64,000 bases of DNA from Clostridia bacterium (GCA_017504405.1 JAFVRG010000020.1:41881-105880), one strand, 5' to 3'. Counted from the stretch's first letter, positions 6,640 through 46,258 are shown. Notes: generated by a model from the sequence alone, not told the origin. Translations and numbers: made by a program.

Positions 6640-7534
6640 ATACAAATTCTCGGATGAGAGCGAGAAGCGTGAGTACGTCCACGAGTGTGACGGTGTTTTC
6701 GAGGCTCAGCTCGATTCTGCGGTAGAAAAAATATCGGAAATTGAAAGCCTGCGTGTAATAACCCTGTCAGGTCCTACCTGCTCGGGAAAAACAACAACGG
6801 CGGCGAAGCTCGTCAGTGAGCTGACGGCTAAGGGCAAAAAGGTTCACGTAATTTCGATAGACGATTTTTATTACAACCGTGATTTCCTCGTAGAAAGAGC
6901 GAAAAAAGAGGGCACTTCCCTCGATTTTGAATCGGTACGGACAATAGACCTTCACGCTCTTTCCGAGGTTATAGAGGAAATATTTGATAAAGATTTCGTA
7001 ATCCTGCCGAAATACGATTTTGAGAGCGGTACACGCAAGAGCGAGCAGCGCCTTGAAATAGACGACAGTGATATCTTCATATTTGAGGGTATACAGGCGC
7101 TCTATCCCGAGGTAACGGCGCTTCTCTCGCATCATAATTTCGTCAGCGTTTACGTATCGGTTGCAGAGTCGCTCTCTGTCGGCTCTGCCGTGTTTGATGC
7201 AAACGAGGTGCGATTCTTCCGACGCCTCGTCAGGGATTACAATTTCAGAGGCTCATCACCCGAATTTACCTTTGAGATATGGAAGAGTGTTCGGGAAAAT
7301 GAGGATAAAAACATATATCCGTACTGTACAGGGTGCGACGTAAGGCTCAACTCCCTGCTCGGTTACGATATATCGATGTTGAAGCCGTATCTTATACCCC
7401 TGCTCGACAGTATAGAATCGGGCAGTGAATATTATGGGATAGCACAGGATATGATAAAGAAAATGGCGCATATAGAGGAGATAAATTCCGACTATATGCC
7501 TGATATTTCAGTATTCCATGAGTTTCTGGGTTAG
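6626..7534 (+). CDS. uridine kinase / phosphoribulokinase-family P-loop nucleoside kinase
   Basis: Walker A motif GPTCSGKTTTA and the family-like segment IFIFEGIQALYPE. I moved the start from the track's 6554 to ATG 6626, which follows GGAGA at 6616-6620. Confidence 0.6.
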   Translation: MKIAKYKFSDESEKREYVHECDGVFEAQLDSAVEKISEIESLRVITLSGPTCSGKTTTAAKLVSELTAKGKKVHVISIDDFYYNRDFLVERAKKEGTSLDFESVRTIDLHALSEVIEEIFDKDFVILPKYDFESGTRKSEQRLEIDDSDIFIFEGIQALYPEVTALLSHHNFVSVYVSVAESLSVGSAVFDANEVRFFRRLVRDYNFRGSSPEFTFEIWKSVRENEDKNIYPYCTGCDVRLNSLLGYDISMLKPYLIPLLDSIESGSEYYGIAQDMIKKMAHIEEINSDYMPDISVFHEFLG

Positions 7535-7544
7535 GAGATAGTGT

Positions 7545-9179
7545 ATGCAAAACGGGGATAGCAGGCTTTTTGCTTCAAGGATGGAAAAAAAGAGCAGAAA
7601 ATCGCTGTTATCCGGTGTTTTGATACTTACAATCGCCAATATAGCGGTAAAAATATTCGGTTTTTTATATAAAGTACCCCTCAACGGTATGCTGGGCGAC
7701 GAGATGGCAAACGTCAATGCCGCCTATTCGGTATATTCTACCTTGCTCGTCCTGTCAACGGCAGGTATTCCGTCGGCGGTGGCTATGCTCGTATCCCGTG
7801 CCCGTGCCGAGGGGGACGAGGGGCGTGCCGAGAGGGTGTTTGACGTAGCGCATACTGCGCTCGCTGTGGCGGGAGTTTTACTTACTCTCGCTCTGCTTTT
7901 TCTATCACGCTTTATCGCCAATTTCAATTCCGGCGGAGATTCCTTTCTCTGTATGTGCGCAATATCGCCGGCATTGCTTTTCGTCTGCCTGTCGAGCGTT
8001 TATAGGGGATATTTTCAGGGGCATCAGATAATGACGCCTACCGCAATATCCGAGGTGATAGAGTCATTTTCCAAAATGGCGCTCGGACTTTTGCTCGCTT
8101 ACTTTACCCTCGGTCGCTACGGTAGCGGCACCGCCGCCGCATTCTCGGTTTTGGGAATAACGCTCGGTATGGGGCTTGGTGTTTTCTATCTTTGCATTAC
8201 ATTTTCTTTATATAGAAAGAAAAATCCGTCGGCCCAAACATCTGTAAAGGGACACCGTGAGCGCCGCAGAACACTGTGGGAGCTTATCAGATTATCCCTG
8301 CCGATAGCGGCGAGCTCTGCGGTAATCAGTATGGCAGGACTCATTGATTCACAGCTGATGCGTCCCCTGCTCGAGAGATATTCGGGCAGCGCAGAATATG
8401 CAAAGGCAGTGTATTCCGACTATTCAACGGGAGCAATAACGCTTTTTAATCTCCCAACAATTCTCATATACCCGATTGCCTGCGCCATAATTCCGTATAT
8501 CAGTGCCGCCCTCGTGAGGGGAAATAGGCGTGGCGTGTGTGAGGTTGTTGGCTCGTCGTTTCGTGTCTGCTCGCTTATCAGTATGCCGTGCGCCCTCGGT
8601 ATGAGTGTGCTGGCAACACCTATACTCGCCTTTGTTTTCCGAGGCGATGCGGATATGCCCGAGAATGCCGGTAAACTCCTCTCAATCTTAGCAATTGCCA
8701 TATTCTTTATAGGTATATTAACCGTCAGCAACGCCGTGCTTCAGGCGCACGGCAGGCAGTCCCTGCCTATAATCTCAATGACGGCAGGACTCGTTGTAAA
8801 GGGCGTGTCGGTCTGGCTTCTCACCGTAAGGTACGGCGCAATAGGTGCACCTGTCAGCACGCTCTTGTTCTATGCGGTGACGGTGATTATAAATATGTTT
8901 TTCGTATGCAAATATACGGGTGTGGCGCTGTCGGTTACGTCGGTGTTCGTTAAGCCGTTGGTTTGCTCGTCAATATCGTCAGGTGCGGCGTTTTTGACAT
9001 ACACGCTTCTCTCGGACGCTTCGCTCACGCTCGCCCTCATTTCGGCAATAGCTGTAGCGGTAGCCGTGTATATAGCGCTCATTTTGCTTTTGCGTTGCAT
9101 CACTCTCTCGGATATTCGGCAGCTGCCCCACGGAGAGAAGATAGCATTACGCCTTTCGGGCATCATTAAGGATAAATAA
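7545..9179 (+). CDS. MOP-superfamily flippase (MurJ / SpoVB / YabM-like polysaccharide or lipid II flippase)
   Basis: 544-aa polytopic membrane protein with an N-terminus typical of the MurJ/SpoVB family (KIFGFLYKVPLNGMLGDE...AGIPSAV). It sits upstream of mazG, as yabM does in Bacillus. AGGAGA RBS. Confidence 0.7.
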   Translation: MQNGDSRLFASRMEKKSRKSLLSGVLILTIANIAVKIFGFLYKVPLNGMLGDEMANVNAAYSVYSTLLVLSTAGIPSAVAMLVSRARAEGDEGRAERVFDVAHTALAVAGVLLTLALLFLSRFIANFNSGGDSFLCMCAISPALLFVCLSSVYRGYFQGHQIMTPTAISEVIESFSKMALGLLLAYFTLGRYGSGTAAAFSVLGITLGMGLGVFYLCITFSLYRKKNPSAQTSVKGHRERRRTLWELIRLSLPIAASSAVISMAGLIDSQLMRPLLERYSGSAEYAKAVYSDYSTGAITLFNLPTILIYPIACAIIPYISAALVRGNRRGVCEVVGSSFRVCSLISMPCALGMSVLATPILAFVFRGDADMPENAGKLLSILAIAIFFIGILTVSNAVLQAHGRQSLPIISMTAGLVVKGVSVWLLTVRYGAIGAPVSTLLFYAVTVIINMFFVCKYTGVALSVTSVFVKPLVCSSISSGAAFLTYTLLSDASLTLALISAIAVAVAVYIALILLLRCITLSDIRQLPHGEKIALRLSGIIKDK

Positions 9180-9201
9180 TTCAAGCATCGGAGTATAAAC
9201 A

Positions 9202-10014
9202 ATGGATATTAAGGAAAAAATCAGGACATTGGCAGTTAAGGAAAGATACAGCTTTTCAGACCTATGCGACATTATGGAGGTTCTGCGCTCGGAAGAGGGC
9301 TGCCCCTGGGATAGGGAGCAGAGCCACGAGAGCGTACGCATGGCATTGCTCGAGGAAACCTATGAGGCTGCAGAGGCAATAGATGACAAAAATCCCGAGC
9401 TGCTCTGTGAGGAGCTGGGTGATATGCTGTTTCAGATAGTTTTCCACGCAGAGATAGAGCGTGAGCGTGGTGTGTTTGACATATCAGACGTAATCGACGG
9501 AGTGAGTGCGAAGATGGTGCACCGCCACCCGCACGTCTTTTCTAACGTAATTGCGGAAAACTCGGATAAGGTGCTGTCAAATTGGGAAAAGATAAAAAAC
9601 AGTGAGAAATCCCGCGACAGCGCCGCCTCACGCCTTAAATCCGTTCCTAAAACGCTGCCCGCCCTTATGAAGGCAGAGAAGGTTGGCTCGAGAGCGGCAA
9701 AGGTTGGATTTGATTTTCCAGATGCCGACAGCGCAAGGGAGAAAATTTATGAGGAGCTGTTGGAGCTTGAAGGAGCAGAGAGCGATGCCGACAGATTGGA
9801 GGAGGCAGGCGACCTTCTCTTCGCTGTTGTGAATTATCTGCGCAAGCTCGGGATAAACTCCGAACAGGCGCTCGGCTACGCTACGGACAAGTTCGTTTCA
9901 CGGTTTGAAAAAACAGAGACGGAGCTGACGAAAAACGGCGGAAAAATGCAGGATTTTTCCCTATCTGAGATGGATAATGCGTGGAAAAGGGTAAAAATGA
10001 ACAAAAATAACTGA
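9202..10014 (+). CDS. mazG: MazG nucleoside triphosphate pyrophosphohydrolase (tandem MazG domains)
   Basis: CPWDREQSHESV...LLEETYE...ELGDMLFQIVFH, plus a second EEAGDLLFAVVNY repeat. 270 aa. Confidence 0.85.
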   Translation: MDIKEKIRTLAVKERYSFSDLCDIMEVLRSEEGCPWDREQSHESVRMALLEETYEAAEAIDDKNPELLCEELGDMLFQIVFHAEIERERGVFDISDVIDGVSAKMVHRHPHVFSNVIAENSDKVLSNWEKIKNSEKSRDSAASRLKSVPKTLPALMKAEKVGSRAAKVGFDFPDADSAREKIYEELLELEGAESDADRLEEAGDLLFAVVNYLRKLGINSEQALGYATDKFVSRFEKTETELTKNGGKMQDFSLSEMDNAWKRVKMNKNN

Positions 10015-10052
10015 AAAAAATGTAATTTTTTGTGTTTTTTTGCGATAAATGC

Positions 10053-10081
10053 TTGCAAAACTGGAAAAAGTATGTTATACT
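10053..10081 (+). promoter_or_regulatory. sigma-A type promoter for hup
   Basis: TTGCAA (10053-10058), a 17-nt spacer, then TGtTATACT with -10 at 10076-10081 (extended -10). Confidence 0.6.
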
Positions 10082-10125
10082 AAAAGCGTAAAAAAAAATA
10101 TTTTTACAAAGAAAGGGATTTTAAA

Positions 10126-10395
10126 ATGAACAAGACAGAGCTTATCAATGTAGTTGCAGAGGCAACAGATCTCAAGAAGAAGGACGCAGAGGCAGCAGTT
10201 AACGCAGTATTCGCAGCTATCGCTGACGCACTCAAGGCAGGCGATAAGGTTCAGCTTATCGGCTTCGGTTCCTTCGATGTTAAGGAAAGAGCAGCAAGAG
10301 AGGGCCGCAACCCCGCTACCGGCGAGAAGATTCAGATCGCAGCTTCCAAGAGTGTAGGCTTCTCCGCAGCATCCGCACTCAAGGCATCTCTTTAA
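10126..10395 (+). CDS. hup: DNA-binding protein HU
   Basis: 89 aa: MNKTELI...[26 protein letters not shown], the canonical HU/IHF fold signature. Confidence 0.95.
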
Positions 10396-10404
10396 TTCCA
10401 TTGA

Positions 10405-10647
10405 ATGAGGCTTGATAAATATCTCAAGGTCTCAAGGATAATTAAACGCAGAACGGTGGCGAACGATGCGTGTGACGCATCGCACGTCACCGTTAACGGT
10501 AAAACGGCAAAGGCGTCGTATGACGTGAAGAGCGGCGACATCATCGAGGTAACCTTCGGTCAACGCTCGCTTTGTGTGCGTGTTCTTGAGATTAAGGAAA
10601 GCACGAAAAAGACCGATGCAGACTCAATGTATGAGGTCATAACATAG
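10405..10647 (+). CDS. S4-domain RNA-binding protein (YabO/Hsp15-like)
   Basis: 80 aa. [19 protein letters not shown]...V.VNGK.AK.S..V..GD is the S4 motif. The position after hup matches Bacillus yabO. Confidence 0.8.
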
Positions 10648-10649
10648 TT

Positions 10650-10682
10650 AAAGGCGGTAATGCAACCGCCCTTTTCTTTTTT
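10650..10682 (+). terminator. intrinsic terminator after the S4-domain gene
   Basis: GGCGGT (10652-10657) pairs with ACCGCC (10664-10669), followed by a T-rich run (cttttctttttt). Confidence 0.8.
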
Positions 10683-10821
10683 CTTTCGGCACACCTTTTT
10701 TCTGCTCCTTTGAAAATATTGGAAAAACGCCCTCTGCCAATATGCCTTTTGTCCTTGCGGTGCATTTTTTTATAATACCGAGCATAAGAATATAGTGTTA
10801 GAATATATTGGGAGGCATAGT

Positions 10822-11100
10822 ATGCAAACGGAAAACAGAGTAGAGAAAAGACACGATTTAATGATAAATTCACGCAAAAAAATCTCTCTTTCGGGAATTG
10901 TTTCGGTAAAGGGCTTTGACGACTGTGAGGTGCTCCTTGAAACCTGTATGGGCAGGCTGACGGTTGAGGGCAGGGATTTACGTGTCACACACCTCGCAGA
11001 GGATAGCGGCGAGGTGTGCATCGAGGGCACGGTGAACGCACTTTATTATTCGGATGCTTCCGAGAAAAAGGGTGGATTTTTCTCCCGTCTGACAAAGTAA
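10822..11100 (+). CDS. yabP: sporulation protein YabP
   Basis: YabP-like sequence (LSGIVSVKGFDDCEVLLETCMGRLTVEGRDLRVTHL). I moved the start to ATG 10822, which follows GGGAGG. Synteny with yabQ supports the call. Confidence 0.7.
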   Translation: MQTENRVEKRHDLMINSRKKISLSGIVSVKGFDDCEVLLETCMGRLTVEGRDLRVTHLAEDSGEVCIEGTVNALYYSDASEKKGGFFSRLTK

Positions 11101-11633
11101 TGGAGCTATCTATGATAGATATGGGCAGCTCTTTTTTGCTGTCCGTTTTATTAGGTGCATTTTTCGGCTTATGCTATGACCCCCTGCGGATATTGCGCAT
11201 TTTGCGCAGAGAAAAAAAGGGTGTTTTCTTCAAGGTGCTGACGGCTATCGAGGATTTTTTGCTCCTCTCGACCTATGGTGCCTTTTTTTCAATTTTCGTC
11301 TTTGCCGTAAACGACGGTGTTCTGCGTGGCTTTATGCTTTTAGGCACGCTTTTGGGCTTTTTGATTTATTATTTTACAGTCGGCAGGCTCGTGATGGCTG
11401 TCAGCGAGAGGATAATTTCCTTTGTCCGCAGGTCAGTGCGGTTTGTAGCAAGAATTTTGTACAAACCTCTGAAAATCACGCTTGTATTTGTCTATAATAA
11501 ATCCATACGGTTGCTTTTACGTCTTGTCCTAAAGGTGTATATTTATTTCATCTCTCTTCCGCTTGCAAGGCACAGGCTTCGCAGCGTAGCAACCGAGTGC
11601 AGAGAAATTGTGAAATGCGAGGCGCTTACATAA
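11100..11633 (+). CDS. yabQ: spore cortex biosynthesis protein YabQ-like membrane protein
   Basis: Multi-TM 177-aa protein. The ATG at 11100 overlaps the yabP stop by 1 nt (TAATG). The track's upstream extension from 11016 lies inside yabP. Confidence 0.55.
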   Translation: MELSMIDMGSSFLLSVLLGAFFGLCYDPLRILRILRREKKGVFFKVLTAIEDFLLLSTYGAFFSIFVFAVNDGVLRGFMLLGTLLGFLIYYFTVGRLVMAVSERIISFVRRSVRFVARILYKPLKITLVFVYNKSIRLLLRLVLKVYIYFISLPLARHRLRSVATECREIVKCEALT

Positions 11634-11672
11634 GGCTGTCAGAAAAACAAAAAAAGTGTCGAGAGGCAAGCA

Positions 11673-11701
11673 TTGACAATACGTGCGTAATATGTTAAAA
11701 T
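11673..11701 (+). promoter_or_regulatory. sigma-A type promoter for the glg operon
   Basis: TTGACA (11673-11678), a 17-nt spacer, then TGtTAAAAT with -10 at 11696-11701. Confidence 0.55.
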
Positions 11702-11728
11702 ATATAAAATACTATATTAGGTGGAAAT

Positions 11729-13639
11729 ATGAAAAGCAAGGATATGGGAGAGTACCTGTTTCATCAGGGTACGAATTTTGAGGCATATAAGCTCCTCGGC
11801 GCTCACGTAGCTGTTGGCGACGGGGGATATACCTATACCTTTTCCACCTGGGCGCCTAACGCCGCCGAGATTTCCTTAGTGGGTGATTTCTGCGATTGGA
11901 ATACGGGAATCGCTATGGAGCGCACAACGGGCGGCGGAATATTCAGAGCAACCGTAAAATCCGACGTCTCGCTTGAGGGGCAACGGTATAAATTCAAAAT
12001 CAGGGGAAAAAACGGAACTCATCTTAAGGGTGACCCGTACGCCTTTTCCTCTATGGGCGGAGCAGACGGCGCATCGCTGATTTGTCACGAGTCAGCATTT
12101 GAGTGGCAGGACGGTGCGTGGCTCGAATACAGAAAATCAACTGTATGCGAGAGCAAGGGTAAATATCTCGCAACGCCGATAAATATCTACGAGGTGCATC
12201 TCGCATCCTTTATGAGAAAAGAGGACGGCTCATATCTATCCTACAAGGAGCTTGCCGACACCCTCGTTCCTTACGCAAAATCTCTCGGATTTACACATAT
12301 CGAGCTTTTACCCATAACCGAATATCCGTATGACGGCTCGTGGGGCTATCAGGTGTGCGGATACTATGCGCCCACATCCCGCTTTGGCACGCCAGACGAT
12401 TTCCGTTATTTCGTAAATAAATGCCACACATCGGGTGTAGGACTTATCCTTGACTGGGTTCCCGCACATTTTCCGAAGGACGAGTGGGGACTTTATGAAT
12501 TCGACGGCTCGCCCCTCTACGAATATCAGGGTAAGGATAGGCAGGAGAGCCGTTCCTGGGGCACACGCTATTTTGACGTAGGCCGTGAGGAGGTACAGTC
12601 CTTCCTCATCTCAAACGCACTGTATTGGCTCGAACAGTTCCATATAGACGGCATACGTGTCGATGCGGTTGCCTCTATGATATATCTTGACTATGACAGA
12701 GAGCCGGGCGAGTGGGTTCCCAACGTGTACGGCAATAACAAAAACCTTGAGGCTATTGCATTTTTGCAGAAGCTCAATACGGCGGTATTTTCCCGTCACC
12801 CCGATGCTCTAATGATAGCGGAGGAATCAACCTCGTTTGGCGGTATAACGCATCCTGTCAGCGAGGGCGGACTCGGATTTAATCTCAAATGGAATATGGG
12901 CTTTGCCAACGATTTTTACGATTACGTTGCAACCGACCCTTATTTCAGGAAGGACCGCCACACGGCGCTCAATTTCCCGATAATGTACGCATTTGGCGAG
13001 AATTATATTATGCCTATATCTCACGACGAGGTGGTTCACGGCAAAAAATCCTTTGTCGATAAGATGTTCGGTCCGTATGAGGACAAGTTCTCGCAGATGC
13101 GAGCCGCTCTTATGCTCATAATGACCTATCCCGGCAAGAAGATGATGTTTATGGGTACGGAGTATGCGCAATTCCGTGAGTGGGATTTTTCCGATTCACT
13201 TGAATGGTTTATGCTCGATTATCCAAATCATGCCAATATGCGTGAATTTGTCGCATCGCTCAACCGTTACTACCTCAAAACCCCGTCACTTTGGGAGGAC
13301 GATTTCACCCCCGACGGCTTTGAGTGGATATATCCCGACGAGGCAGGGAATAATATGGTAGCCTATCGGCGTGTGTCGGCAGATGGGGAAAGGGTTACGG
13401 TAATTGCCAGCTTTTGCGGCAGACCGATTGAGTCCTTGCGTGTTCCTGTGAGCGAAAAGGGAACGTATATAAATGAATTTTCTACGGGAGAAGGCTTCTC
13501 AAAGCTCTACCGTTCAAAAAAAGATAAAAACGGCAATTATATTTCGGTAGACGTGCCGCGGTTCGGCGCAGTTATTCTTAAAAAATCAACCGCCAAAACG
13601 CCCGCCATGAAAAGAATGGAGGAAAGAGATGTATTTTAA
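11729..13639 (+). CDS. glgB: 1,4-alpha-glucan branching enzyme
   Basis: 636 aa with GH13 branching-enzyme regions [23 protein letters not shown] and [10 protein letters not shown]. Confidence 0.95.
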
Positions 13640-19909: not shown

Positions 19910-21862
19910 TTGTCACAGCTTAGAATAAATAAGAGCAATGCGATGAACCCGAGAGGCAGGCTTTCCTTTACCGAAAACGGAAAGGAAACAAACGGTCGCC
20001 GTGCATTTTCGCACGGTGACCGCATCGGACTTTCGCTTTATCTGCCACGCTCGCTCGGAGCTGTTTCGGCTATCGCCCATCTGAAGAATGAACACACAGG
20101 TGATATAACCGAGTACGGCTTTCAATGGAGCGGAGCAGAGAGGGATTTTGATTTATATACATTAAGCTTCGACACGGCTGATTTGTCAGTACGCTCGGGG
20201 CTGTTTTTCCTGCGCATTGATATAGAATCCGTTTGCGGATATGTATGCGCACAAAGGGCAGAGGGGGATAGCGTAAGCTTTGCGCCCCTATGCGACAGCT
20301 CGCCATTTTCGCACCAGATAACCGTCAGCGATTTTGAGTATCCGCCCCCCGATTGGCTGAGAGGCGGAGTTATATACCACGTGTTTGTTGACAGGTTTTA
20401 CAGGGGCAAAGAAACCCCCGCCCGCCCCGACAGCATTATGCTGACCGATTGGGATAACGGTATTCCCGAGTATCCCGAATATCCCGGGGCGCACCTTGAA
20501 AATAACACATTTTTCGGCGGAAATCTATGGGGGGTTATAGATAAGCTCGATTATATCGCCTCGCTCGGCACACGGGCAATATACCTCAGCCCGATTTTCG
20601 AGGCGTATTCAAATCATAAGTACGATACGGGAAATTATATGAAGGTTGATGACGCCTTCGGCGGTGAGGAGGCGCTCTGCGCCCTTATTGCAGAGGCGAA
20701 AAAGCGTGGCATAGGAATAATCCTTGACGGCGTATTCAACCATACGGGCGCTGACAGTATTTATTTCAATAAATTCGGAAAATACGACTCCGTCGGCGCA
20801 TATCAGTCGAAGGATTCGCCGTATTACGGCTGGTTTGATTTTCAGTGGCACCCCTATAAATACACCTGTTGGTGGGATATCGACATTCTGCCGAGAATAA
20901 ATACCGCCGTGCCCGAGTGCCGTGAATATTTCCTCGGCAATAACGGAGTTATACGCCATTATGCAAAAATGGGTATTGCGGGTATGCGCCTTGACGTCGT
21001 TGACGAGCTCTCCGACGATTTCGTTTCGGGTATAAAGAGCGTGCTGGCAAGCGAGAACAGCGGCTCGGTGCTTTACGGCGAGGTCTGGGAGGATGCGTCC
21101 AACAAAATTGCATACGGCACACGCAAGAAATACTACCTCGGATGCGAGCTTGACGGCGTTATGAATTACCCCTATCGCACGGGCATAATAGATTATCTGC
21201 GGCAGGGGCGCACCGATACGCTTTCATACGCTCTCTCAGATGTTTTACCCAATATGCCGAAGCGCATAAGGGACTTGCAGATGAATCTGCTCGGAACTCA
21301 CGATACCGAGCGCATTATAACTGCGCTTGCCGCTCCGAATAGCGAGGGCAAAAGCAACGCCGAGCTATCGGTATTCCGAATGAATGAGGGCGATTACGCT
21401 CTCGGCATAAAGCGATTAAAGCTCGCCTATCTCATACTTTCAACCCTGCCGGGAATACCGACGGTTTACTACGGTGACGAGGTGGGAGTAGAGGGCTATA
21501 AGGATCCGTTTAACAGGACCCCGTACCCTTGGAATAAGCAGAATGAGGAGCTTCTTGACTTTTACAGACAAATGGGCAATATCAGAGCATCACGCTCGGT
21601 CTATGCAGACGGAGAATTTTCGCTGATTTGCCTTGACAGCGAATGTCTTGCCTTTTCCCGTGAGAAAAACGGCAGAGCATACGTTACATTAGTTAATAAT
21701 TCAAGCGCCCCCCTCTATGTTTTTGCAGATGGAGCGAGGGCAGAATGGGGAACGAAAATCAGAAAAGGTCGGGCGGTTATTGCCCCCCTTTCGGGAGCAA
21801 TAATATCTATACCCCTATCTCAAATAAGCAGCTTACGCCTGTCCTTTGAAAATGACGAATAA
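19910..21862 (+). CDS. GH13 alpha-amylase-family glycoside hydrolase (neopullulanase/cyclomaltodextrinase-like) with an N-terminal accessory domain
   Basis: All four GH13 conserved regions are present: DGVFNHTG, GMRLDVVDEL, GEVWED and LGTHDTER. The start is TTG at 19910; ATG 19943 is an alternative. Confidence 0.85.
   Translation: MSQLRINKSNAMNPRGRLSFTENGKETNGRRAFSHGDRIGLSLYLPRSLGAVSAIAHLKNEHTGDITEYGFQWSGAERDFDLYTLSFDTADLSVRSGLFFLRIDIESVCGYVCAQRAEGDSVSFAPLCDSSPFSHQITVSDFEYPPPDWLRGGVIYHVFVDRFYRGKETPARPDSIMLTDWDNGIPEYPEYPGAHLENNTFFGGNLWGVIDKLDYIASLGTRAIYLSPIFEAYSNHKYDTGNYMKVDDAFGGEEALCALIAEAKKRGIGIILDGVFNHTGADSIYFNKFGKYDSVGAYQSKDSPYYGWFDFQWHPYKYTCWWDIDILPRINTAVPECREYFLGNNGVIRHYAKMGIAGMRLDVVDELSDDFVSGIKSVLASENSGSVLYGEVWEDASNKIAYGTRKKYYLGCELDGVMNYPYRTGIIDYLRQGRTDTLSYALSDVLPNMPKRIRDLQMNLLGTHDTERIITALAAPNSEGKSNAELSVFRMNEGDYALGIKRLKLAYLILSTLPGIPTVYYGDEVGVEGYKDPFNRTPYPWNKQNEELLDFYRQMGNIRASRSVYADGEFSLICLDSECLAFSREKNGRAYVTLVNNSSAPLYVFADGARAEWGTKIRKGRAVIAPLSGAIISIPLSQISSLRLSFENDE
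21836..21862 (+). repeat. direct repeat copy A (the last 27 nt of the GH13 gene)
   Basis: cgcctgtcctttgaaaatgacgaataa. It matches 24196-24219 with 1 mismatch and one 3-nt indel. Confidence 0.8.
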
Positions 21863-21910
21863 AAAGCTTCTGAATAGGGCGGTCAGGGATTTTAATTGGA
21901 CAAAAGAAAA

Positions 21911-21940
21911 CCCGACTTGTGAAAAGTCGAGTTTTATTTT
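21911..21940 (+). terminator. intrinsic terminator downstream of the GH13 gene
   Basis: cccgactt / aagtcgag stem (one C.A mismatch), a 5-nt loop, then ttttatttt. Confidence 0.7.
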
Positions 21941-22035
21941 ATCGCACAAACTGTTTGAATTGTATTTTTTTTGAATACAATAAATTCACAGATGAATAAG
22001 AATTTGTCAAACCGACGCCCCGTTCAAATCAACTG

Positions 22036-22064
22036 TTGACAGAAAGAGAAAAATGTGATATAAT
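22036..22064 (+). promoter_or_regulatory. near-consensus sigma-A promoter for ktrBA
   Basis: TTGACA (22036-22041), a 17-nt spacer, then TGaTATAAT with -10 at 22059-22064. Confidence 0.7.
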
Positions 22065-22084
22065 TACAAAAAATGTTAATAATT

Positions 22085-22131
22085 AAGGAACCAGCTGACT
22101 GCAGAGGACGTTGGTTTCTTTGTGCTTTTTT
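22085..22131 (+). promoter_or_regulatory. 5'-leader stem-loop followed by a T-run, immediately upstream of the ktrB RBS
   Basis: An 11-bp stem (aaggaaccagc / gttggtttctt, two G.U pairs) with a 14-nt loop, then tgtgc and tttttt at 22126-22131. The RBS GAGGA is at 22132-22136. Confidence 0.4.
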
Positions 22132-22144
22132 GAGGAAAATCCTT

Positions 22145-23506
22145 ATGGATAGAAAAAAGAAATTTACACTCTCAACCACGCAGATTATATTACTTAGCTT
22201 CCTCGCAACCATTCTCGCGGGAAGCGGTCTTTTAGCATTGCCGATTAGTTCCGCAAGCGGAGAGGCCGTGCCGTATCTTGATGCACTTTTCACAGCAACC
22301 TCCGCTACCTGCGTGACGGGACTCGTTACACTCCCAACCGTATCTACTTGGAGCGTGTTCGGACAGATCGTCATTTTGCTTCTGATACAGGTCGGAGGAC
22401 TTGGTATCGTCACCATTATGTCGGGGCTGATGCTTCTTCTGAACAGAAAAATGGGCATCGGTGACCGATTGCTCATTCAGGATGCCTTCAATCTAAACAC
22501 AATGTCGGGACTTGCAAAGTTTGTAAAGAACGTACTGTTCGGCACGCTGATTATTGAAGGGATCGGTGCTATACTGTATATGTTCGTGTTCGTTCCCGAG
22601 TTTGGCGCAAAAGGCATCTGGATATCGGTATTTAATTCGGTTTCCGCCTTCTGTAATGCCGGCATCGACATTATTGCGGAAAACAGTCTTTGCAATTACG
22701 CCACAAATTCCTTAATTAACATCGTAACCTCTGCGCTCATCATTCTCGGTGGTCTCGGTTATATCGTATGGTGGGACGTGCTTCGTGTTGTTAAGAGCCG
22801 TTCGCCAAAGAACCGCAAAATATTCAGGCATTTGACATTACACTCAAAGATTGCGATTACCGTTACCGCAGGACTCATTCTTGGCGGTGCAATTCTCATA
22901 TTTATTTTTGAATATGACAACCCGTTGACTATCGGAAAGATGTCCGTGTTCGATAAAATTCAAGCATCCTTCTTCCAATCTGTCACAACGAGAACCGCAG
23001 GCTTTGCTACAGTTCCGCAAGAAAATCTGACAAATGCCTCTGCCGCCGTATCTATTATTTTGATGCTGATCGGCGGTTCTCCCGTGGGAACGGCAGGCGG
23101 TATGAAAACCGTAACTATTGCCGTTCTCATTTGTTCGGCATTAGCTACAGTCCGCAATAAAAACAGCGCAACCCTATTTGGCCGTCGTATTTCCGAGGGC
23201 TCGGTGAAAAAGGCAGTTGCTGTGGTCGTAACATTCCTAACGATCTGTGCAATATCCACCGTGCTCTTGATGGCAACAGGCAACGCATCTGCTCTTGATG
23301 CGGTCTATGAAACTGTCAGCGCAACGGCAACCGTCGGTCTTTCAAGAAATCTGACAGCAACGCTGGGCACATTTGGAAGGTTAATTATCATAGTAACGAT
23401 GTATTTCGGCAGAGTCGGTCCAATCTCACTTGCGGTGGCACTTGGCAGTAAAAACGAAAGTCAGAATGTAATTTCCGAGCCGACGGAAGATATAAGTATA
23501 GGATAA
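22145..23506 (+). CDS. ktrB: K+ uptake membrane subunit (KtrB/TrkH family)
   Basis: Polytopic protein with repeated pore-loop-like glycine motifs (TCVTGL, QVGGLG, RTAGF, GGSPVGTAGGMK, TVGLS). I moved the start to ATG 22145 (MDRKKKF), which follows GAGGA. Confidence 0.85.
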   Translation: MDRKKKFTLSTTQIILLSFLATILAGSGLLALPISSASGEAVPYLDALFTATSATCVTGLVTLPTVSTWSVFGQIVILLLIQVGGLGIVTIMSGLMLLLNRKMGIGDRLLIQDAFNLNTMSGLAKFVKNVLFGTLIIEGIGAILYMFVFVPEFGAKGIWISVFNSVSAFCNAGIDIIAENSLCNYATNSLINIVTSALIILGGLGYIVWWDVLRVVKSRSPKNRKIFRHLTLHSKIAITVTAGLILGGAILIFIFEYDNPLTIGKMSVFDKIQASFFQSVTTRTAGFATVPQENLTNASAAVSIILMLIGGSPVGTAGGMKTVTIAVLICSALATVRNKNSATLFGRRISEGSVKKAVAVVVTFLTICAISTVLLMATGNASALDAVYETVSATATVGLSRNLTATLGTFGRLIIIVTMYFGRVGPISLAVALGSKNESQNVISEPTEDISIG

Positions 23507-23516
23507 GGAGAGAACT

Positions 23517-24167
23517 ATGAAAGTAAAGAAAACTTATGCAGTTTTTGGACTTGGAAGATACGGCACAGCCGTGGCAAGAGAGCTTGTAGAGAACGGTATG
23601 GAGGTCATTGCCGTAGATACCGAAGAGCGAATTGTAAATGATGCAGCCGCATATCTGCCCGTGTGCAAGTGCGCAGACGTGACCGATGCAGAGGTTATCT
23701 CCCGTCTTGGCATCGAAAATATTGATACAGTAATTGTTTGTATGGCAAGCAATCTTGAAGCGAGTGTGATGGCGGTCACGCTTTGCAAGGAGGCGGGCGT
23801 TAATAACGTTATTGCAAAATGCGCTAATGAGATGCACCAAAAGATATTGCTTCGTGTGGGCGCAGATCAAGTGGTATTTCCCGAGAATGAGTCGGGAATT
23901 CGCCTCGCCAAGAATTTACTGAGCTCCGGCTTTATCGATATGATTTCCTTGTCGAAGGACGTATCAATGGTTGAGATTGATGTGAAGAACGACTGGATCG
24001 GTAAAAATCTAATTGAGCTTAATCTTCGTAAAAAATACGGCTTCAATATCGTTGCCATTAAGAAAGGCGAGAATGTCAACGTGAATATCAATCCCGAACA
24101 GGTGCTTGATGCGGAAACCACGCTGATTGTTATTGCAAATACGGCGAAATTGGGAAAACTGAAATAA
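23517..24167 (+). CDS. ktrA: K+ uptake peripheral RCK subunit (KtrA/TrkA family)
   Basis: 216 aa with the N-terminal Rossmann motif FGLGRYG and a C-terminal RCK_C-like domain. It is paired with ktrB. Confidence 0.85.
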   Translation: MKVKKTYAVFGLGRYGTAVARELVENGMEVIAVDTEERIVNDAAAYLPVCKCADVTDAEVISRLGIENIDTVIVCMASNLEASVMAVTLCKEAGVNNVIAKCANEMHQKILLRVGADQVVFPENESGIRLAKNLLSSGFIDMISLSKDVSMVEIDVKNDWIGKNLIELNLRKKYGFNIVAIKKGENVNVNINPEQVLDAETTLIVIANTAKLGKLK

Positions 24168-24195
24168 GCTTTCAAATTCCAATGCCGAGCTTTTG

Positions 24196-24219
24196 CGCCT
24201 ATCCTTTGAAAACGAATAA
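24196..24219 (+). repeat. direct repeat copy B (a relic of the GH13 3' end)
   Basis: cgcctatcctttgaaaacgaataa reads ...LRLSFENE* in a frame closed upstream by TGA at 24160-24162. The GH13 C-terminus is ...LRLSFENDE*. Confidence 0.75.
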
Positions 24220-24220
24220 T

Positions 24221-24247
24221 AAAAAACGGCTGTATCAGCCGTTTTTT
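24221..24247. terminator. bidirectional intrinsic terminator (ktrA / cysteine desulfurase convergent pair)
   Basis: acggctg / cagccgt stem with a tat loop, flanked by A6 on the left and T6 on the right. The stop codon of the minus-strand gene lies inside the hairpin. Confidence 0.8.
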
Positions 24248-25347
24248 ATTTCCTTTAATGCCTGCCATAGGACGTTCAGCTCTCTATGCTTGTTGAAGTA
24301 ACCGAAGCTGAGGCGGACACTGCCGGTCGGATATGTTCCGAGTGCCTTATGCGCCAGAGGCGCACAGTGGAGTCCCGCCCGACAGCAGATGCCGTTTTTC
24401 ATAAGAATCTCCGCCACCTTTGATACGGGCATTTTTTCCGAAACAAAGGACAGAGTGCCAACCCCCTCTGAAAACACTCGCACTTTGTCTATTGATTTGA
24501 GCATTTCCGCCGCCTTTTCAGTCAGTATTCTTTCCTGCCATTCTATTTCCGAAAGTCCAATGCTCTTTACAAATGAAACACCTCTGCCGAGGGCGGCAAT
24601 TGCGGGTGTAAAAAGGGTTCCCGCCTCGTATCTGTCGGGCAGAAAAACGGGCATTTTCACGCTTGATGAATTTACGCCGCTACCTCCCTGCATAAATTCG
24701 TCAAGACCGTCGGCAGAGTTAAGTATAACAAAGCCCGCCCCCTGTATACCCATAAGCCCCTTGTGAGCCGGGGCGCAGAGTGCGTTTATATTGCACCCCG
24801 TCATATCAATTTCGGTATGTCCTGCGCTCTGCGAGGCATCGACTATGAAATATATTCCTCGCTCACGGCATAGCCGTCCTATTTCCGCTATATCCTGCTT
24901 TCTTGCGCTGACGTTTGATACGTGATTGCAGATTATAATGTCCGTGTTATCTCTCAGCTTGCGCTTTATTGAGGACAGAGGTGACAAGGTGGTGAATACA
25001 CCGTATTCCGCTCCTGCGTCTTCGCAGGCGGCGCTGACGGGACGGAGAACGGAATTGTGCTCCATATCACTGATAAGGACGTGGGAGCCCTTTTTAATTT
25101 TGGTTTTTATGGCGAGGTTGAGCGCATAGGTAGCGTTTGGTGTGAATATTACGTTTTCGGGCTTATCAAAAGAAAAAAAGTCGCACAAAAGCTCTCTGCA
25201 TTCGTAAATTTTATCGGCGGCACGCATAGAAAGTATATGCGAGCCCCTGCCGGGGTTACCGCCGCATTTTTTAATTGTCCGTACAGTTTCCCTTATAACC
25301 GCCCGTGGCTTTGGGTAGCTCGTGGCGGCGTTGTCAAAATATATCAT
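24235..25347 (-). CDS. class V aminotransferase / cysteine desulfurase family protein
   Basis: 370 aa with the PLP-lysine context CAPAHKGLMG and the C-terminal active-site-like RAGLHCAP. Confidence 0.8.
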   Translation of the reverse strand: MIYFDNAATSYPKPRAVIRETVRTIKKCGGNPGRGSHILSMRAADKIYECRELLCDFFSFDKPENVIFTPNATYALNLAIKTKIKKGSHVLISDMEHNSVLRPVSAACEDAGAEYGVFTTLSPLSSIKRKLRDNTDIIICNHVSNVSARKQDIAEIGRLCRERGIYFIVDASQSAGHTEIDMTGCNINALCAPAHKGLMGIQGAGFVILNSADGLDEFMQGGSGVNSSSVKMPVFLPDRYEAGTLFTPAIAALGRGVSFVKSIGLSEIEWQERILTEKAAEMLKSIDKVRVFSEGVGTLSFVSEKMPVSKVAEILMKNGICCRAGLHCAPLAHKALGTYPTGSVRLSFGYFNKHRELNVLWQALKEIKNG

Positions 25348-25556
25348 ATGCTCTCCGTTGCTTGAAAATCTATTCCGATATTGCGGATTACTGCCGCCGC
25401 ACGCATAAATTCACGGCAGTCAAGCGATAGTGCAAAGCTGCATCCCTCTTCACTCTCAATTTTGATTATGTGTGAGGAAATTTTCGCCTTTGCGAGGGCC
25501 TTTTTTGCCTTTTGTGAATGTGTCTGCGAGCCAATTGTCATAGTACAGCTTTTCAT
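25344..25556 (-). CDS. DUF3343-like small protein (putative S/Se carrier-like partner of the desulfurase)
   Basis: 70 aa starting MKSCTMTIGSQTHSQKAKKALAKAKISS...EGCSFALSL. The start at 25556 follows AGGGGACGGA. There is an ATGA overlap with the desulfurase start. I consider the track's longer version (to 25646) over-extended. Confidence 0.5.
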   Translation of the reverse strand: MKSCTMTIGSQTHSQKAKKALAKAKISSHIIKIESEEGCSFALSLDCREFMRAAAVIRNIGIDFQATESI

Positions 25557-25738
25557 TTTTCCGTCCCCTGTTTTTAGGTTATACAATAGCATTTTATGCC
25601 AATGTGAAAGCGCTGCCACGCAGGGCGGAGTGGGAGAAACAGACAATTTTTAAAAAATAAATAAAAATGACTGAAATTTATGGACAAAGAGCAAATAATA
25701 TGTTATAATTGATAAATATTAAATAATTTTGGTGAAAT

Positions 25739-26347
25739 ATGAAAATATATTCTTTTCACAAGGGCGGATACGCATCTAACTCATACGCAGTTTGCGATGA
25801 TGATATGAAGGTGTGCTTTGCCGTTGACCCTGCGCTCACTCCTGCCGAGATGCGTGCGGCGGTGCCATCGCTTTCCGAAATCAAGGGAGTTTTGCTGACT
25901 CACGGACATTTTGACCACATATTGTCGCTCGCTTCGTACGTTTCTGAGGACATACCGGTTTATATTCACCCAAATGACATGGATATGCTGACTGACGGAT
26001 ATAAGAACGCATCGTCACTCGTTTCGATTACCCCGATAACCGCCTATGGCGCAAGCGTCAATGAGGTGCTTGACGGGCAGAAAATTGCGATAGGCGACGA
26101 GAAAATTACCGTCATGCACACCCCGGGACATACGGCAGGCTCGGTCTGTTACCTTGCCGATAGCTTTGTCATTACGGGGGATACGGTTTTCGCCTTTGGC
26201 GATAGGGGAAGAACCGATTTGTATTCGGGAAATGAGGCGGAGATTTATCGCTCTGTTGAAAGAATACTTGCTCTTGACGGAGAATTAACCGTATATTCGG
26301 GACACGGCCCGAAAACCAAAATTACGGATGAAAGAAAATATTACTGA
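25739..26347 (+). CDS. MBL-fold metallo-hydrolase (glyoxalase II-like)
   Basis: The LLTHGHFDH metal-binding motif, with HTPGHT further on. 202 aa. Confidence 0.8.
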   Translation: MKIYSFHKGGYASNSYAVCDDDMKVCFAVDPALTPAEMRAAVPSLSEIKGVLLTHGHFDHILSLASYVSEDIPVYIHPNDMDMLTDGYKNASSLVSITPITAYGASVNEVLDGQKIAIGDEKITVMHTPGHTAGSVCYLADSFVITGDTVFAFGDRGRTDLYSGNEAEIYRSVERILALDGELTVYSGHGPKTKITDERKYY

Positions 26348-45205: not shown

Positions 45206-46258
45206 TTAGTGCAACGTTCCCGTGCAGGAAAATGATTTTATTATATTGTAACGCTCCGACAGCATAGCAAAAAGAGGTGGATAGAAGGAGCTTATATTAT
45301 CAATATAGAAGGAATTTATGCCGAGTGAGTCGTAACTGTCGAGGCTTTTCTTCCATAGTGATAAAGAGGGCAGGGCAACTTTTACGTGCCTTTTTCCCTC
45401 GTCGCATTCATAGGAGCATCCGTTTTGCGTAACGTTAAATTTCACAAGCCTTTTACACGCAACCGCCATAGCATCGCTTATCGGTATTTCCATATCCTTT
45501 CCGTCAACAGTTTTTGTGGCAGAATAGAATATAGGCATTGCGAGCCTGCGTCGCTCATAGCTTGAACTGTCAGAGTCGGTGAGAATACAGTCACAGGATA
45601 TGTTGAAATTATCCTTGCATCGCAAAAACACTCCTATTCTGTGTGCTGACAGCTCTTCGTAAATATCATCTATTATTTTACCGTCCTTGGCAGGTATGTC
45701 TTGGGCATCTATCATCACAATGCGAAATCCGCAAGAAATTGCTTTTTCTGCTATTTCCTTTGGGCTTGCCCTGTCACACGACGGGTTTATCCTCAAAATT
45801 TTTTCCACCCCTGCAGCCTTTATCATATCGCTGTAACGGCACTCTCTGTTTCCGAATGGCAGAGAAATGTACGTAAGGTAGGGGAGCGTGTGAGATAGCA
45901 GCTGCTCTGAAATACCCTCTCTGAAAATTCCTGTTATACACACAGAATGCTTTTCATTTTTCGGATATATTGAAAAAACATCTTTTTTGTCGTTTTTCTT
46001 GTGATTTTGGGATAAATTTGAATTTTTTGTCTTAAAATCTCTTTGATAATTTTTGTGCTTTTCGGATAATATATTAAACTGATAATTTCTTATGCTGCAC
46101 AGCTCACACCTGATTTTGGGTATCAGAAGCTCTATTCCTTTGCATAGTCCCGTGGGATTTAATAAAAAATTTTTGCGCTCTAACTCTTCCTTATCAATAC
46201 CGTATTTTTGAGCAATTTCGTTTAATTCTTCATTTTCTTCTACCTTATGTATTCTCAC
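45206..46258 (-). CDS. LysM-domain protein; the C-terminal domain is of uncertain family (possibly a degenerate GH18/YaaH-like fold)
   Basis: The N-terminus HKVEENEELNEIAQKYGIDKEELERKNFLLNPTGLCKGIELLIP fits the LysM pattern. A K/N-rich linker follows. I did not find a DxxDxDxE catalytic motif in the C-terminal ~230 aa. Confidence 0.5.
   Translation of the reverse strand: MRIHKVEENEELNEIAQKYGIDKEELERKNFLLNPTGLCKGIELLIPKIRCELCSIRNYQFNILSEKHKNYQRDFKTKNSNLSQNHKKNDKKDVFSIYPKNEKHSVCITGIFREGISEQLLSHTLPYLTYISLPFGNRECRYSDMIKAAGVEKILRINPSCDRASPKEIAEKAISCGFRIVMIDAQDIPAKDGKIIDDIYEELSAHRIGVFLRCKDNFNISCDCILTDSDSSSYERRRLAMPIFYSATKTVDGKDMEIPISDAMAVACKRLVKFNVTQNGCSYECDEGKRHVKVALPSLSLWKKSLDSYDSLGINSFYIDNISSFYPPLFAMLSERYNIIKSFSCTGTLH

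Follow-up and report, generated by a model that had tools for sequence, protein, structure and literature searches.

Organization of the ktrBA locus

We analyzed a 64,000-nucleotide (nt) stretch of DNA from a Clostridia bacterium (GCA_017504405.1, JAFVRG010000020.1:41881-105880; hereafter "the window") in which a pair of predicted K+ uptake genes, ktrB and ktrA, lies between the last gene of a glycogen cluster and a gene that converges on it. The cluster reads glgB, glgC, glgD, glgA, glgP and a GH13 gene; ktrB and ktrA follow, and after ktrA come a cysteine desulfurase family gene on the opposite strand, an MBL-fold hydrolase gene and glnS. The features at this junction are listed in Table 1.

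Table 1. Features of the ktrBA locus, in positions of the window (aa, amino acids; L-numbers denote loci compared with the window).
Feature	Position	Strand	Basis or remark
GH13 alpha-glucosidase/amylase-family gene	19943-21862	+	Pfam Alpha-amylase, 1.9e-48
Copy A of the duplicated target	21830-21875	+	Last ~10 GH13 codons, stop, decayed terminator left arm
Segment with terminator-like hairpin T1	21876-21942	+	67 nt; terminator scan, fold
P2 remnant, second upstream cassette promoter and conserved 5′ leader	21945-22010	+	Alignment with L089, L086, L171, L084
P1, consensus sigma-70 promoter with extended -10 (TTGACA-17-TGtgATATAAT)	22036-22064	+	12/12 match
Conserved leader hairpin (AAGGAACCAGC...GUUGGUUUCUU), then U-rich tract	22085-22131	+	Candidate attenuator
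ktrB, TrkH-family K+-translocating membrane subunit, 453 aa	22145-23506	+	Pfam TrkH, 9.6e-48
ktrA, RCK-type regulatory subunit, 216 aa	23517-24167	+	Pfam TrkA_N, 1.1e-24; TrkA_C, 2.1e-11
Cassette tail motif (gctttcAAATTCCAAT--GCCGAGc)	24168-24190	+	Imported DNA, not a GH13 relic
Copy B, non-coding relic of the original GH13 3′ end (LRLSFENE, then stop) with terminator left arm and loop	24188-24235	+	
T2, perfect 15-bp bidirectional terminator	24218-24250	.	Arms 24218-24232 and 24236-24250
Cysteine desulfurase family gene	24235-25347	-	Pfam Aminotran_5; TIGR01977, 396.5 bits, over cut-off

The GH13 reading frame is also open from a TTG at 19910, and the 639-aa gene call recurs in independent assemblies. 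KtrB scored 163 bits against PF02386 (cut-off 27) and 330.4 bits against TIGR00933, marginally under that model's cut-off of 331.15; its homologs carry the names KtrB/TrkH, and its start was corrected to the ATG at 22145. The ktrA gene begins 11 nt after ktrB, ends with a TAA at 24165-24167 and encodes domains matching PF02254 (TrkA_N, nucleotide-binding) and PF02080 (TrkA_C). By domain content the pair is a KtrAB-type K+ uptake system, for which transport is predicted.

The GH13 3′ end is duplicated downstream of ktrA

The original prediction made for this DNA held that the last 27 nt of GH13 recur just 3′ of ktrA, and this proved exact in sequence and position: the core of copy A (cgcctgtcctttgaaaatgacgaataa) occupies 21836-21862, and that of copy B (cgcctatcctttgaaaacgaataa) occupies 24196-24219. 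A 17-nt core, CGCCTRTCCTTTGAAAA, has two sites in the 64 kb even when two mismatches are allowed, and none of 100 shuffles gave two matches. Local alignment of 24168-24240 with the whole window scored 41, compared with 25.3 ± 2.4 (maximum 33) for shuffled sequences, and the repeat is the top direct repeat of the window (43 nt, 79% identical without gaps). The similarity predicted to continue past both stop codons does so, reaching 21875 and 24235. The full duplicate measures ~46-48 nt (21830-21875 vs. 24188-24235; 37 identities over 46/48 nt) and extends into the downstream terminator, covering its A-rich left arm and its loop. Since the duplicate is statistically real and reaches past the coding sequence, convergence of protein sequence cannot explain it.

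The two copies differ in context. The terminator left arm that follows copy A has no partner and does not fold. Copy B lies where relatives have the GH13 stop, and its reading frame is closed upstream by a TGA at 24160-24162, as had been noted. It runs directly into T2, the strong bidirectional terminator anticipated at this place, whose perfect stem folds at -17.9 and -19.7 kcal/mol on the two strands (z -5.5 and -5.9); the same compact arrangement is seen in relatives. The desulfurase stop (TCA, 24235-24237) sits at the boundary between the loop and right arm of this terminator, so the original GH13 and desulfurase stops would have been 15 nt apart. Copy B had been interpreted as an 18-codon relic of a gene end. 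That view holds from ~24188 onward and fails for 24168-24190 (NKLSNSNAE), because a motif matching this segment follows the ktrA stop in other genomes, where it forms the tail of the cassette described below.

The GH13-desulfurase junction lacks ktrBA in related genomes

Species-representative genomes were scanned for the same glg-GH13 cluster, which yielded 80 loci, and proteins were searched against a collection of 5.8 billion sequences. In ~60 related species GH13 is followed by the convergent desulfurase gene, and wherever the contig continues, the desulfurase, MBL-fold and glnS genes follow in turn. Among the 80 loci, where the contig continues, ktrBA was never found between GH13 and the desulfurase gene. 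At 17 loci 2-65 nt and a single hairpin separate the two stop codons, and the nearest full-length GH13 relative (L167, 62% identical) has an empty junction with a 37-nt gap and one hairpin. To judge from these comparisons, copy B together with T2 is built like the ancestral GH13/desulfurase junction. The order GH13-ktrBA-desulfurase was found only in assemblies of the same species (97-100% nt identity; four independent assemblies), with both repeat copies present; the synteny comparison proposed with the original prediction thus came out in its favor. Separate contigs span the left joint (L170, L169), the right joint (L003) and the whole region (L002).

These data bear on two alternatives. Chance similarity, a dispersed genomic repeat or a chimera of metagenome assembly is scarcely credible as the source of the duplicate. 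The sequence is short and A/T-rich and comes from a metagenome scaffold, which would favor such an origin, but no shuffle reached the observed score, the window has just two copies, ~2 Mb of related loci have none, and the repeat agrees with the ancestral junction in position, frame and terminator context. Both joints are present on separate contigs from other samples, which excludes an assembly artifact.

The second alternative, that ktrBA is ancestral at this locus and has been lost from all sampled relatives, is very improbable. The junction is variable in the family, and direct repeats could promote precise excision. Such a history nevertheless requires ktrBA to have been lost cleanly and independently many times, every loss bringing back a compact junction with its hairpin, and relics of ktrBA were seen at none of the empty sites; it would also leave unexplained the ~90% identity of KtrB to proteins from genomes of very different GC content and context, and the codon bias described below. 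The variability of the junction is evident across L009-L083: many species carry a gene for a ~169-aa shikimate kinase, and other occupants are an IS200-like transposase (L037), a MATE pump (L053), an HTH-TPR protein (L073) and an ABC-F ATPase with a membrane protein (L076). Recurrent duplication of the GH13 end around the shikimate kinase gene was considered and rejected: similarity was 13.9 within loci and 13.6 between them (permutation p = 0.30), and the few A/T-rich similarities at such junctions (L023, L074) are anecdotal.

The cassette has foreign affinities

KtrB and GH13 have incongruent relationships in the best-hit comparison suggested earlier. KtrB matches more than 120 distinct 90%-identity clusters at 89-93% identity. 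GH13 finds its best non-self full-length match at 62%; outside its own cluster of seven members, a single truncated protein (74%) exceeds this value. The unit composed of promoter, leader, ktrB and ktrA recurs at ~90% aa identity in at least seven unrelated contexts. When the window was compared with L084, L085, L086, L088/L171, L090, L091, L173 and L174, nt identity was 81-85% from the -35 box of P1 (22036) to 24170-24183 and collapsed beyond, the flanks being unalignable. The neighbors of the unit include smpB upstream (L084), pheST and a glyoxalase gene before it (L085), a small P-loop open reading frame (ORF) before it (L086), spoIIA-sigF-spoVA genes (L171), a TauE gene before it (L173), and MFS and PRK genes on its two sides (L174). 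Long host flanks range from 0.40 to 0.53 in GC content, with third-position GC of 0.37-0.60, whereas cassette GC keeps within 0.43-0.48.

No flanking gene of the window that could calibrate host distances recurs at the other cassette loci. L085 and L178, however, share atp-pheST...Na/Pi-cotransporter synteny (PheT 91% aa identity; flanks 80% and 74% nt) and are a second case of ktrBA presence and absence. In L085 (7160-10306) pheT and tRNA-Pro(CGG) are separated by a 3.1-kb block (P2-glyoxalase-motif-P1-ktrBA-motif) that L178 (8447-8629) lacks. The cassettes of the window and L085 are 83% identical, closer than the core-gene flanks of the congeners L085 and L178. Because the cassette is more similar than the core genes of congeners, and stands in different contexts, we conclude that it has spread horizontally.

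Transposase, integrase and recombinase genes were absent beside the other cassette copies in the contexts examined, and no transposase or recombinase gene flanks the insert in the window (11.7-28 kb by Pfam; ~10 kb on either side of ktrA by annotated genes). A plasmid search gave no match. Searches for phage carriage returned one 120-nt match at 71%, and the KtrB relative in viral contigs is only 44% identical. Around the other cassette copies we found no flank duplications like that of the window, only a 13-nt direct repeat, exact in both copies, on the two sides of ktrBA in L085.

Composition points the same way. ATA accounts for 12 of 71 isoleucine codons in ktrBA, compared with 663 of 1376 in 44 other genes (p = 1.3e-7). 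By gene the values are 1/19 for ktrA, 11/52 for ktrB and 23/42 for GH13, so that the earlier hand tallies for ktrA and GH13 hold; only one other gene is as low in ATA as ktrB. The ATA-poor signature is also present in the cassette in other hosts. The tetranucleotide distance of the cassette has a z of +2.4 (8th of 247 scanning windows), its GC content a z of -2.3, and the synonymous-codon likelihood of ktrB a z of -2.4. Composition favors insertion and would not prove it alone.

Predicted regulatory elements and ends of the cassette

The interval between the copies contains what the original prediction had described: a terminator-like hairpin of its own, a near-consensus TG-extended promoter, and ktrB followed by ktrA. 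The T1 hairpin (21907-21935, followed by a T tract) has a predicted folding energy of -13.5 kcal/mol (z -2.9). The segment that contains it, 21876-21942, resembles nothing in the loci retrieved or in the rest of the window, and within 21863-22035 only 21945-22035 matches other cassettes. The promoter P1 is found at the same position in all cassette copies. Upstream of it, a second promoter, P2, has the consensus TTGAAA-17-TGnTATAAT with a conserved leader, AAACTCACCGATAAATAAGAATTTG; the copy in the window is degenerate. Intact P2 copies precede a 173-aa P-loop ORF in L086 (5040-5106), the glyoxalase gene in L085 (~7400-7472) and no gene in L089 (1337-1400), a pattern that suggests a modular unit whose first gene may be lost or swapped.

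Between P1 and ktrB lies an 80-nt leader with a hairpin composed of AAGGAACC-AGCUGACUGCAGAGGACGU-GGUUCCUU. The hairpin is present upstream of ktrB in the window, L084-L091, L093, L095, L098, L100, L111 and L116. Across 14 cassettes, among them those whose KtrB is only 68-81% identical, its stem and loop hardly vary, and one compensatory pair was seen. A search of Rfam, ydaO-yuaA model included, left both 21800-24400 (E ≤ 1) and 22030-22160 (E ≤ 10) without a match. The hairpin is a candidate attenuator, or a candidate small riboswitch, for control of the K+ transporter. In these respects the locus may be compared with the Bacillus subtilis-type KtrAB system of the Trk/Ktr/HKT superfamily. It is similar in having adjacent genes for a TrkH-family protein and an RCK protein of ~216 aa; it differs in gene order, ktrB preceding ktrA, and in having a short hairpin leader with no match to the ydaO-type cyclic di-AMP riboswitch.

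At the other end of the cassette, the tail motif directly follows the ktrA stop in L085, L088/L171, L090 and L174 as well. An 18-nt A/T-rich motif, AAATTCCAATTTGTCGAG, is found after the ktrA stop in most cassette copies and also after the extra upstream gene in L085 and L086; the two sites in L085 produce the 13-nt direct repeat that brackets ktrBA there. Its sites are 24174-24189 in the window, L085 7841-7855 and 10031-10048, L086 5635-5652, L088 2129-2146, L090 4422-4439, L093 220-237, L174 8031-8048 and L178 8498-8515. In L178 the motif stands alone at the empty pheT-tRNA-Pro site. The spacer at that site was considered as a decayed ktrA end and rejected, as the overall alignment was not above shuffles and only the 18-nt motif is shared.

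One extension of these observations is that ktrBA belongs to a recombinase-less modular family of gut Clostridia (P2-optional gene-motif-P1-leader-ktrB-ktrA-motif) in which AAATTCCAATTTGTCGAG would be an att-like site used in trans and the leader a new cis-regulatory RNA for K+ homeostasis, carried along with the cassette. We regard this as quite doubtful.

A difference between strains was also noted within the cassette. The window and L002 (GCA_045542615.1) are ~97% identical overall and differ by ~10% at 22117-23117, the first 1 kb of ktrB, a distance equal to that of either strain from cassettes in other hosts; from 23117 to 26300 the two are almost identical. The pattern looks like allelic replacement within the cassette combined with a recently shared segment.

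Insertion with duplication of the target

Together, these results argue, with a probability of roughly 0.8, that ktrBA is a foreign cassette inserted at a compact GH13/desulfurase junction with duplication of ~46 nt of the target, most likely by illegitimate recombination. The proposal in the original prediction that the genes arrived as an inserted cassette, by horizontal transfer or illegitimate recombination, is supported by synteny, best hits, the repeat and the ATA bias. The data establish the insertion relative to conserved gene order, the duplication, the foreign affinity of the cassette and the gene families; the recombination mechanism and the direction and donor of the transfer are inferred. 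We propose that ~2.3 kb of foreign DNA (roughly 21876-24187) entered the lineage of an uncultured gut Clostridia (Oscillospiraceae-like) species. The insert would consist of the T1 segment, the degenerate P2, P1, the leader hairpin and U tract, ktrB, ktrA and the short conserved tail. The joint would lie ~10 codons before the GH13 stop, and the ~46 nt of duplicated target would run from the GH13 3′ end through the stop codon into the terminator, taking in its left arm and loop. Copy A would then preserve GH13, and copy B, its coding part dead, would preserve the bidirectional terminator and the desulfurase 3′ end. An AGC overlap at the right joint is consistent with illegitimate, microhomology-level recombination of transferred DNA, which seems more likely than transposition or site-specific integration. 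With a 15-nt spacer between the stops and a hairpin overlapping one of them, a simple insertion would probably damage a neighbor; selection may have favored a rare product in which GH13, the terminator and the desulfurase end all remained intact.

In the resulting arrangement P1 would transcribe ktrBA through the leader attenuator, T1 would block read-through from the glycogen operon, and T2 would end the transcript. KtrB is predicted to conduct K+ and a ring of KtrA RCK domains to gate it, so that the unit would be a self-contained K+ uptake module.

Several observations weigh against this interpretation. Global codon statistics are only moderately deviant, and the compositional anomaly expected from the original prediction was clear for ATA usage, moderate for tetranucleotides, GC content and ktrB codons, and lacking in ktrA, whose codon z is 0.0. 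The relatives with a resolved junction are distant (GH13 identity 62% or less). No donor was found, and the nearest cassette is ~85% identical at the nt level, so either the transfer was not recent or the donor is unsampled. The sharp borders of the cassette could mirror selection on a functional unit instead of true element ends. The copies differ by ~20%, which a simple one-step duplication fits only if the event is old. Finally, to our knowledge a 46-nt target duplication is the hallmark of no well-characterized bacterial insertion mechanism.

Mobile elements of recognized kinds were examined as the source and rejected. A transposon or insertion sequence does not fit, as the insert carries only ktrB and ktrA, lacks terminal inverted repeats, and is bracketed by ~46 nt where such elements leave short duplications (2-14 bp). 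An integron gene cassette does not fit either: the unit has its own promoters, no intI is nearby, and the 18-nt A/T-rich tail is not an attC-like imperfect palindrome. An integrase-mediated element was rejected because none of the annotated genes around the insert or beside the other copies is a tyrosine or serine recombinase and the repeats are ~80% identical, unlike identical att cores.

The position of the insert nevertheless recalls integrative elements, which typically enter the 3′ end of a gene and reconstitute it, leaving direct repeats: the upstream one completes the target gene, and the downstream one is its displaced original end. It differs from such attL/attR elements in lacking an integrase, in the divergence of the copies, and in the occurrence of the same cassette elsewhere without such repeats. 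A related explanation is Campbell-type integration of a circle carrying ~46 nt of the GH13 end, by a RecA-mediated single crossover or by an integrase acting in trans, with the copies as attL and attR. Bracketing direct repeats are the exact product of a single crossover, and circularized fragments gave duplications of 109-950 bp in Escherichia coli (PMC3240628). We consider this improbable: neither the insert and its surroundings nor those of other cassette copies contain an integrase or recombinase gene, GH13-like sequence is absent from the other copies, 46 nt is a short stretch for a RecA-mediated crossover, and the circle must first have acquired a GH13 end. In the sample examined, moreover, host-gene 3′ ends appear to be lacking from the cassette ends of other genomes, and circular reads spanning the junction appear to be lacking as well.

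Homology-facilitated illegitimate recombination (HFIR) from a related donor that already had GH13-T1-ktrBA is unlikely though by no means negligible. In this scheme a homologous left crossover would fall within GH13 and an illegitimate right joint directly before the final ~10 GH13 codons of the recipient; the donor allele would be copy A and the recipient allele copy B. It would account for the divergence of the copies, which both strains share, and for the unmatched terminator segment (21876-21942) between copy A and the cassette. The AGC at the right joint would be a possible 3-nt microhomology; HFIR is documented with microhomologies of 3-10 bp (PMC3240628) and has been invoked for displacements that leave relics in Vibrio cholerae (PMC5361080). 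GH13 is moreover unusually diverged from the closest other genome, L004 (10001-11849, corresponding to window ~19910-21725): GH13 is 74% identical, the neighboring glg proteins 90-94%. Against this, GH13-ktrBA outside the species was absent among the 80 related loci and all ktrB contexts examined. The GH13 identity profile against L004 (N- and C-terminal parts 57-70% nt identical) follows a domain pattern with no single breakpoint, and the L004 contig ends inside the GH13 3′ region, short of the junction. HFIR also usually deletes recipient DNA instead of duplicating it (PMC3240628).

The proposed insertion of the foreign cassette by illegitimate recombination has parallels. Illegitimate and homology-facilitated recombination are known in Acinetobacter, Streptococcus pneumoniae, Pseudomonas stutzeri and E. 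coli conjugation (PMC3240628). As in those events, foreign DNA would here have been joined without a dedicated recombinase and with short microhomology at the joint; unlike classical HFIR, ~46 nt were duplicated, and a homologous anchor is not demonstrable. In the orphan immunity arrays of the V. cholerae type VI secretion system, incoming DNA is proposed to join within the 3′ portion of a conserved gene, displacing the old 3′ end downstream (PMC5361080). The ktrBA locus resembles these arrays, and the orphan 3′ ends of Rhs and contact-dependent inhibition systems, in that a displaced gene end stays as a remnant. It differs from them in that the remnant is a single stub of ~10 codons, where those systems recurrently displace a functional immunity or toxin module; no recurrence was found here. 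A further comparison is E. coli trkG, a K+ uptake gene of the Trk/Ktr family that lies in the rac prophage and is foreign by composition and location (PMC9898762). Unlike trkG, ktrBA is accompanied by no phage, plasmid or mobility gene, and both subunits travel with a promoter.

The event is a well-documented new example of a known and fairly ordinary kind of horizontal acquisition. It provides a natural example of a compact junction of convergent genes accepting foreign DNA, a small duplication sparing both genes and their shared terminator. Mildly novel are the movement of a ktrBA module with conserved ends and without visible mobility genes, and the question of which signal the invariant leader hairpin responds to. 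Among gut Clostridia of very different base composition there circulates a K+ uptake module that is complete and has its own promoter; since K+ uptake helps cells to adapt to osmotic and pH change, its transfer may contribute to adaptation to the gut niche. The leader hairpin and the tail motif are leads, respectively, for a regulatory RNA and a possible mobilization signal.

Other observations in the window

Against the model for the selenocysteine lyase SclA, the desulfurase has a score under the cut-off. In L167 a small gene of the Se_S_carrier family (PF11823; 6015-6230) lies directly upstream of the desulfurase gene, and the window has a 100-aa ORF at the matching position (~25344-25646, minus strand).

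In the compositional scans, the most tetranucleotide-deviant 2.3-kb windows begin at 9001-9751, within an odd region at 9000-12000. The lowest codon score (z -3.1) belongs to the ORF at 11016-11633, and the ORF at 45206-46258 has a GC content of 0.39, compared with 0.47 for the window.

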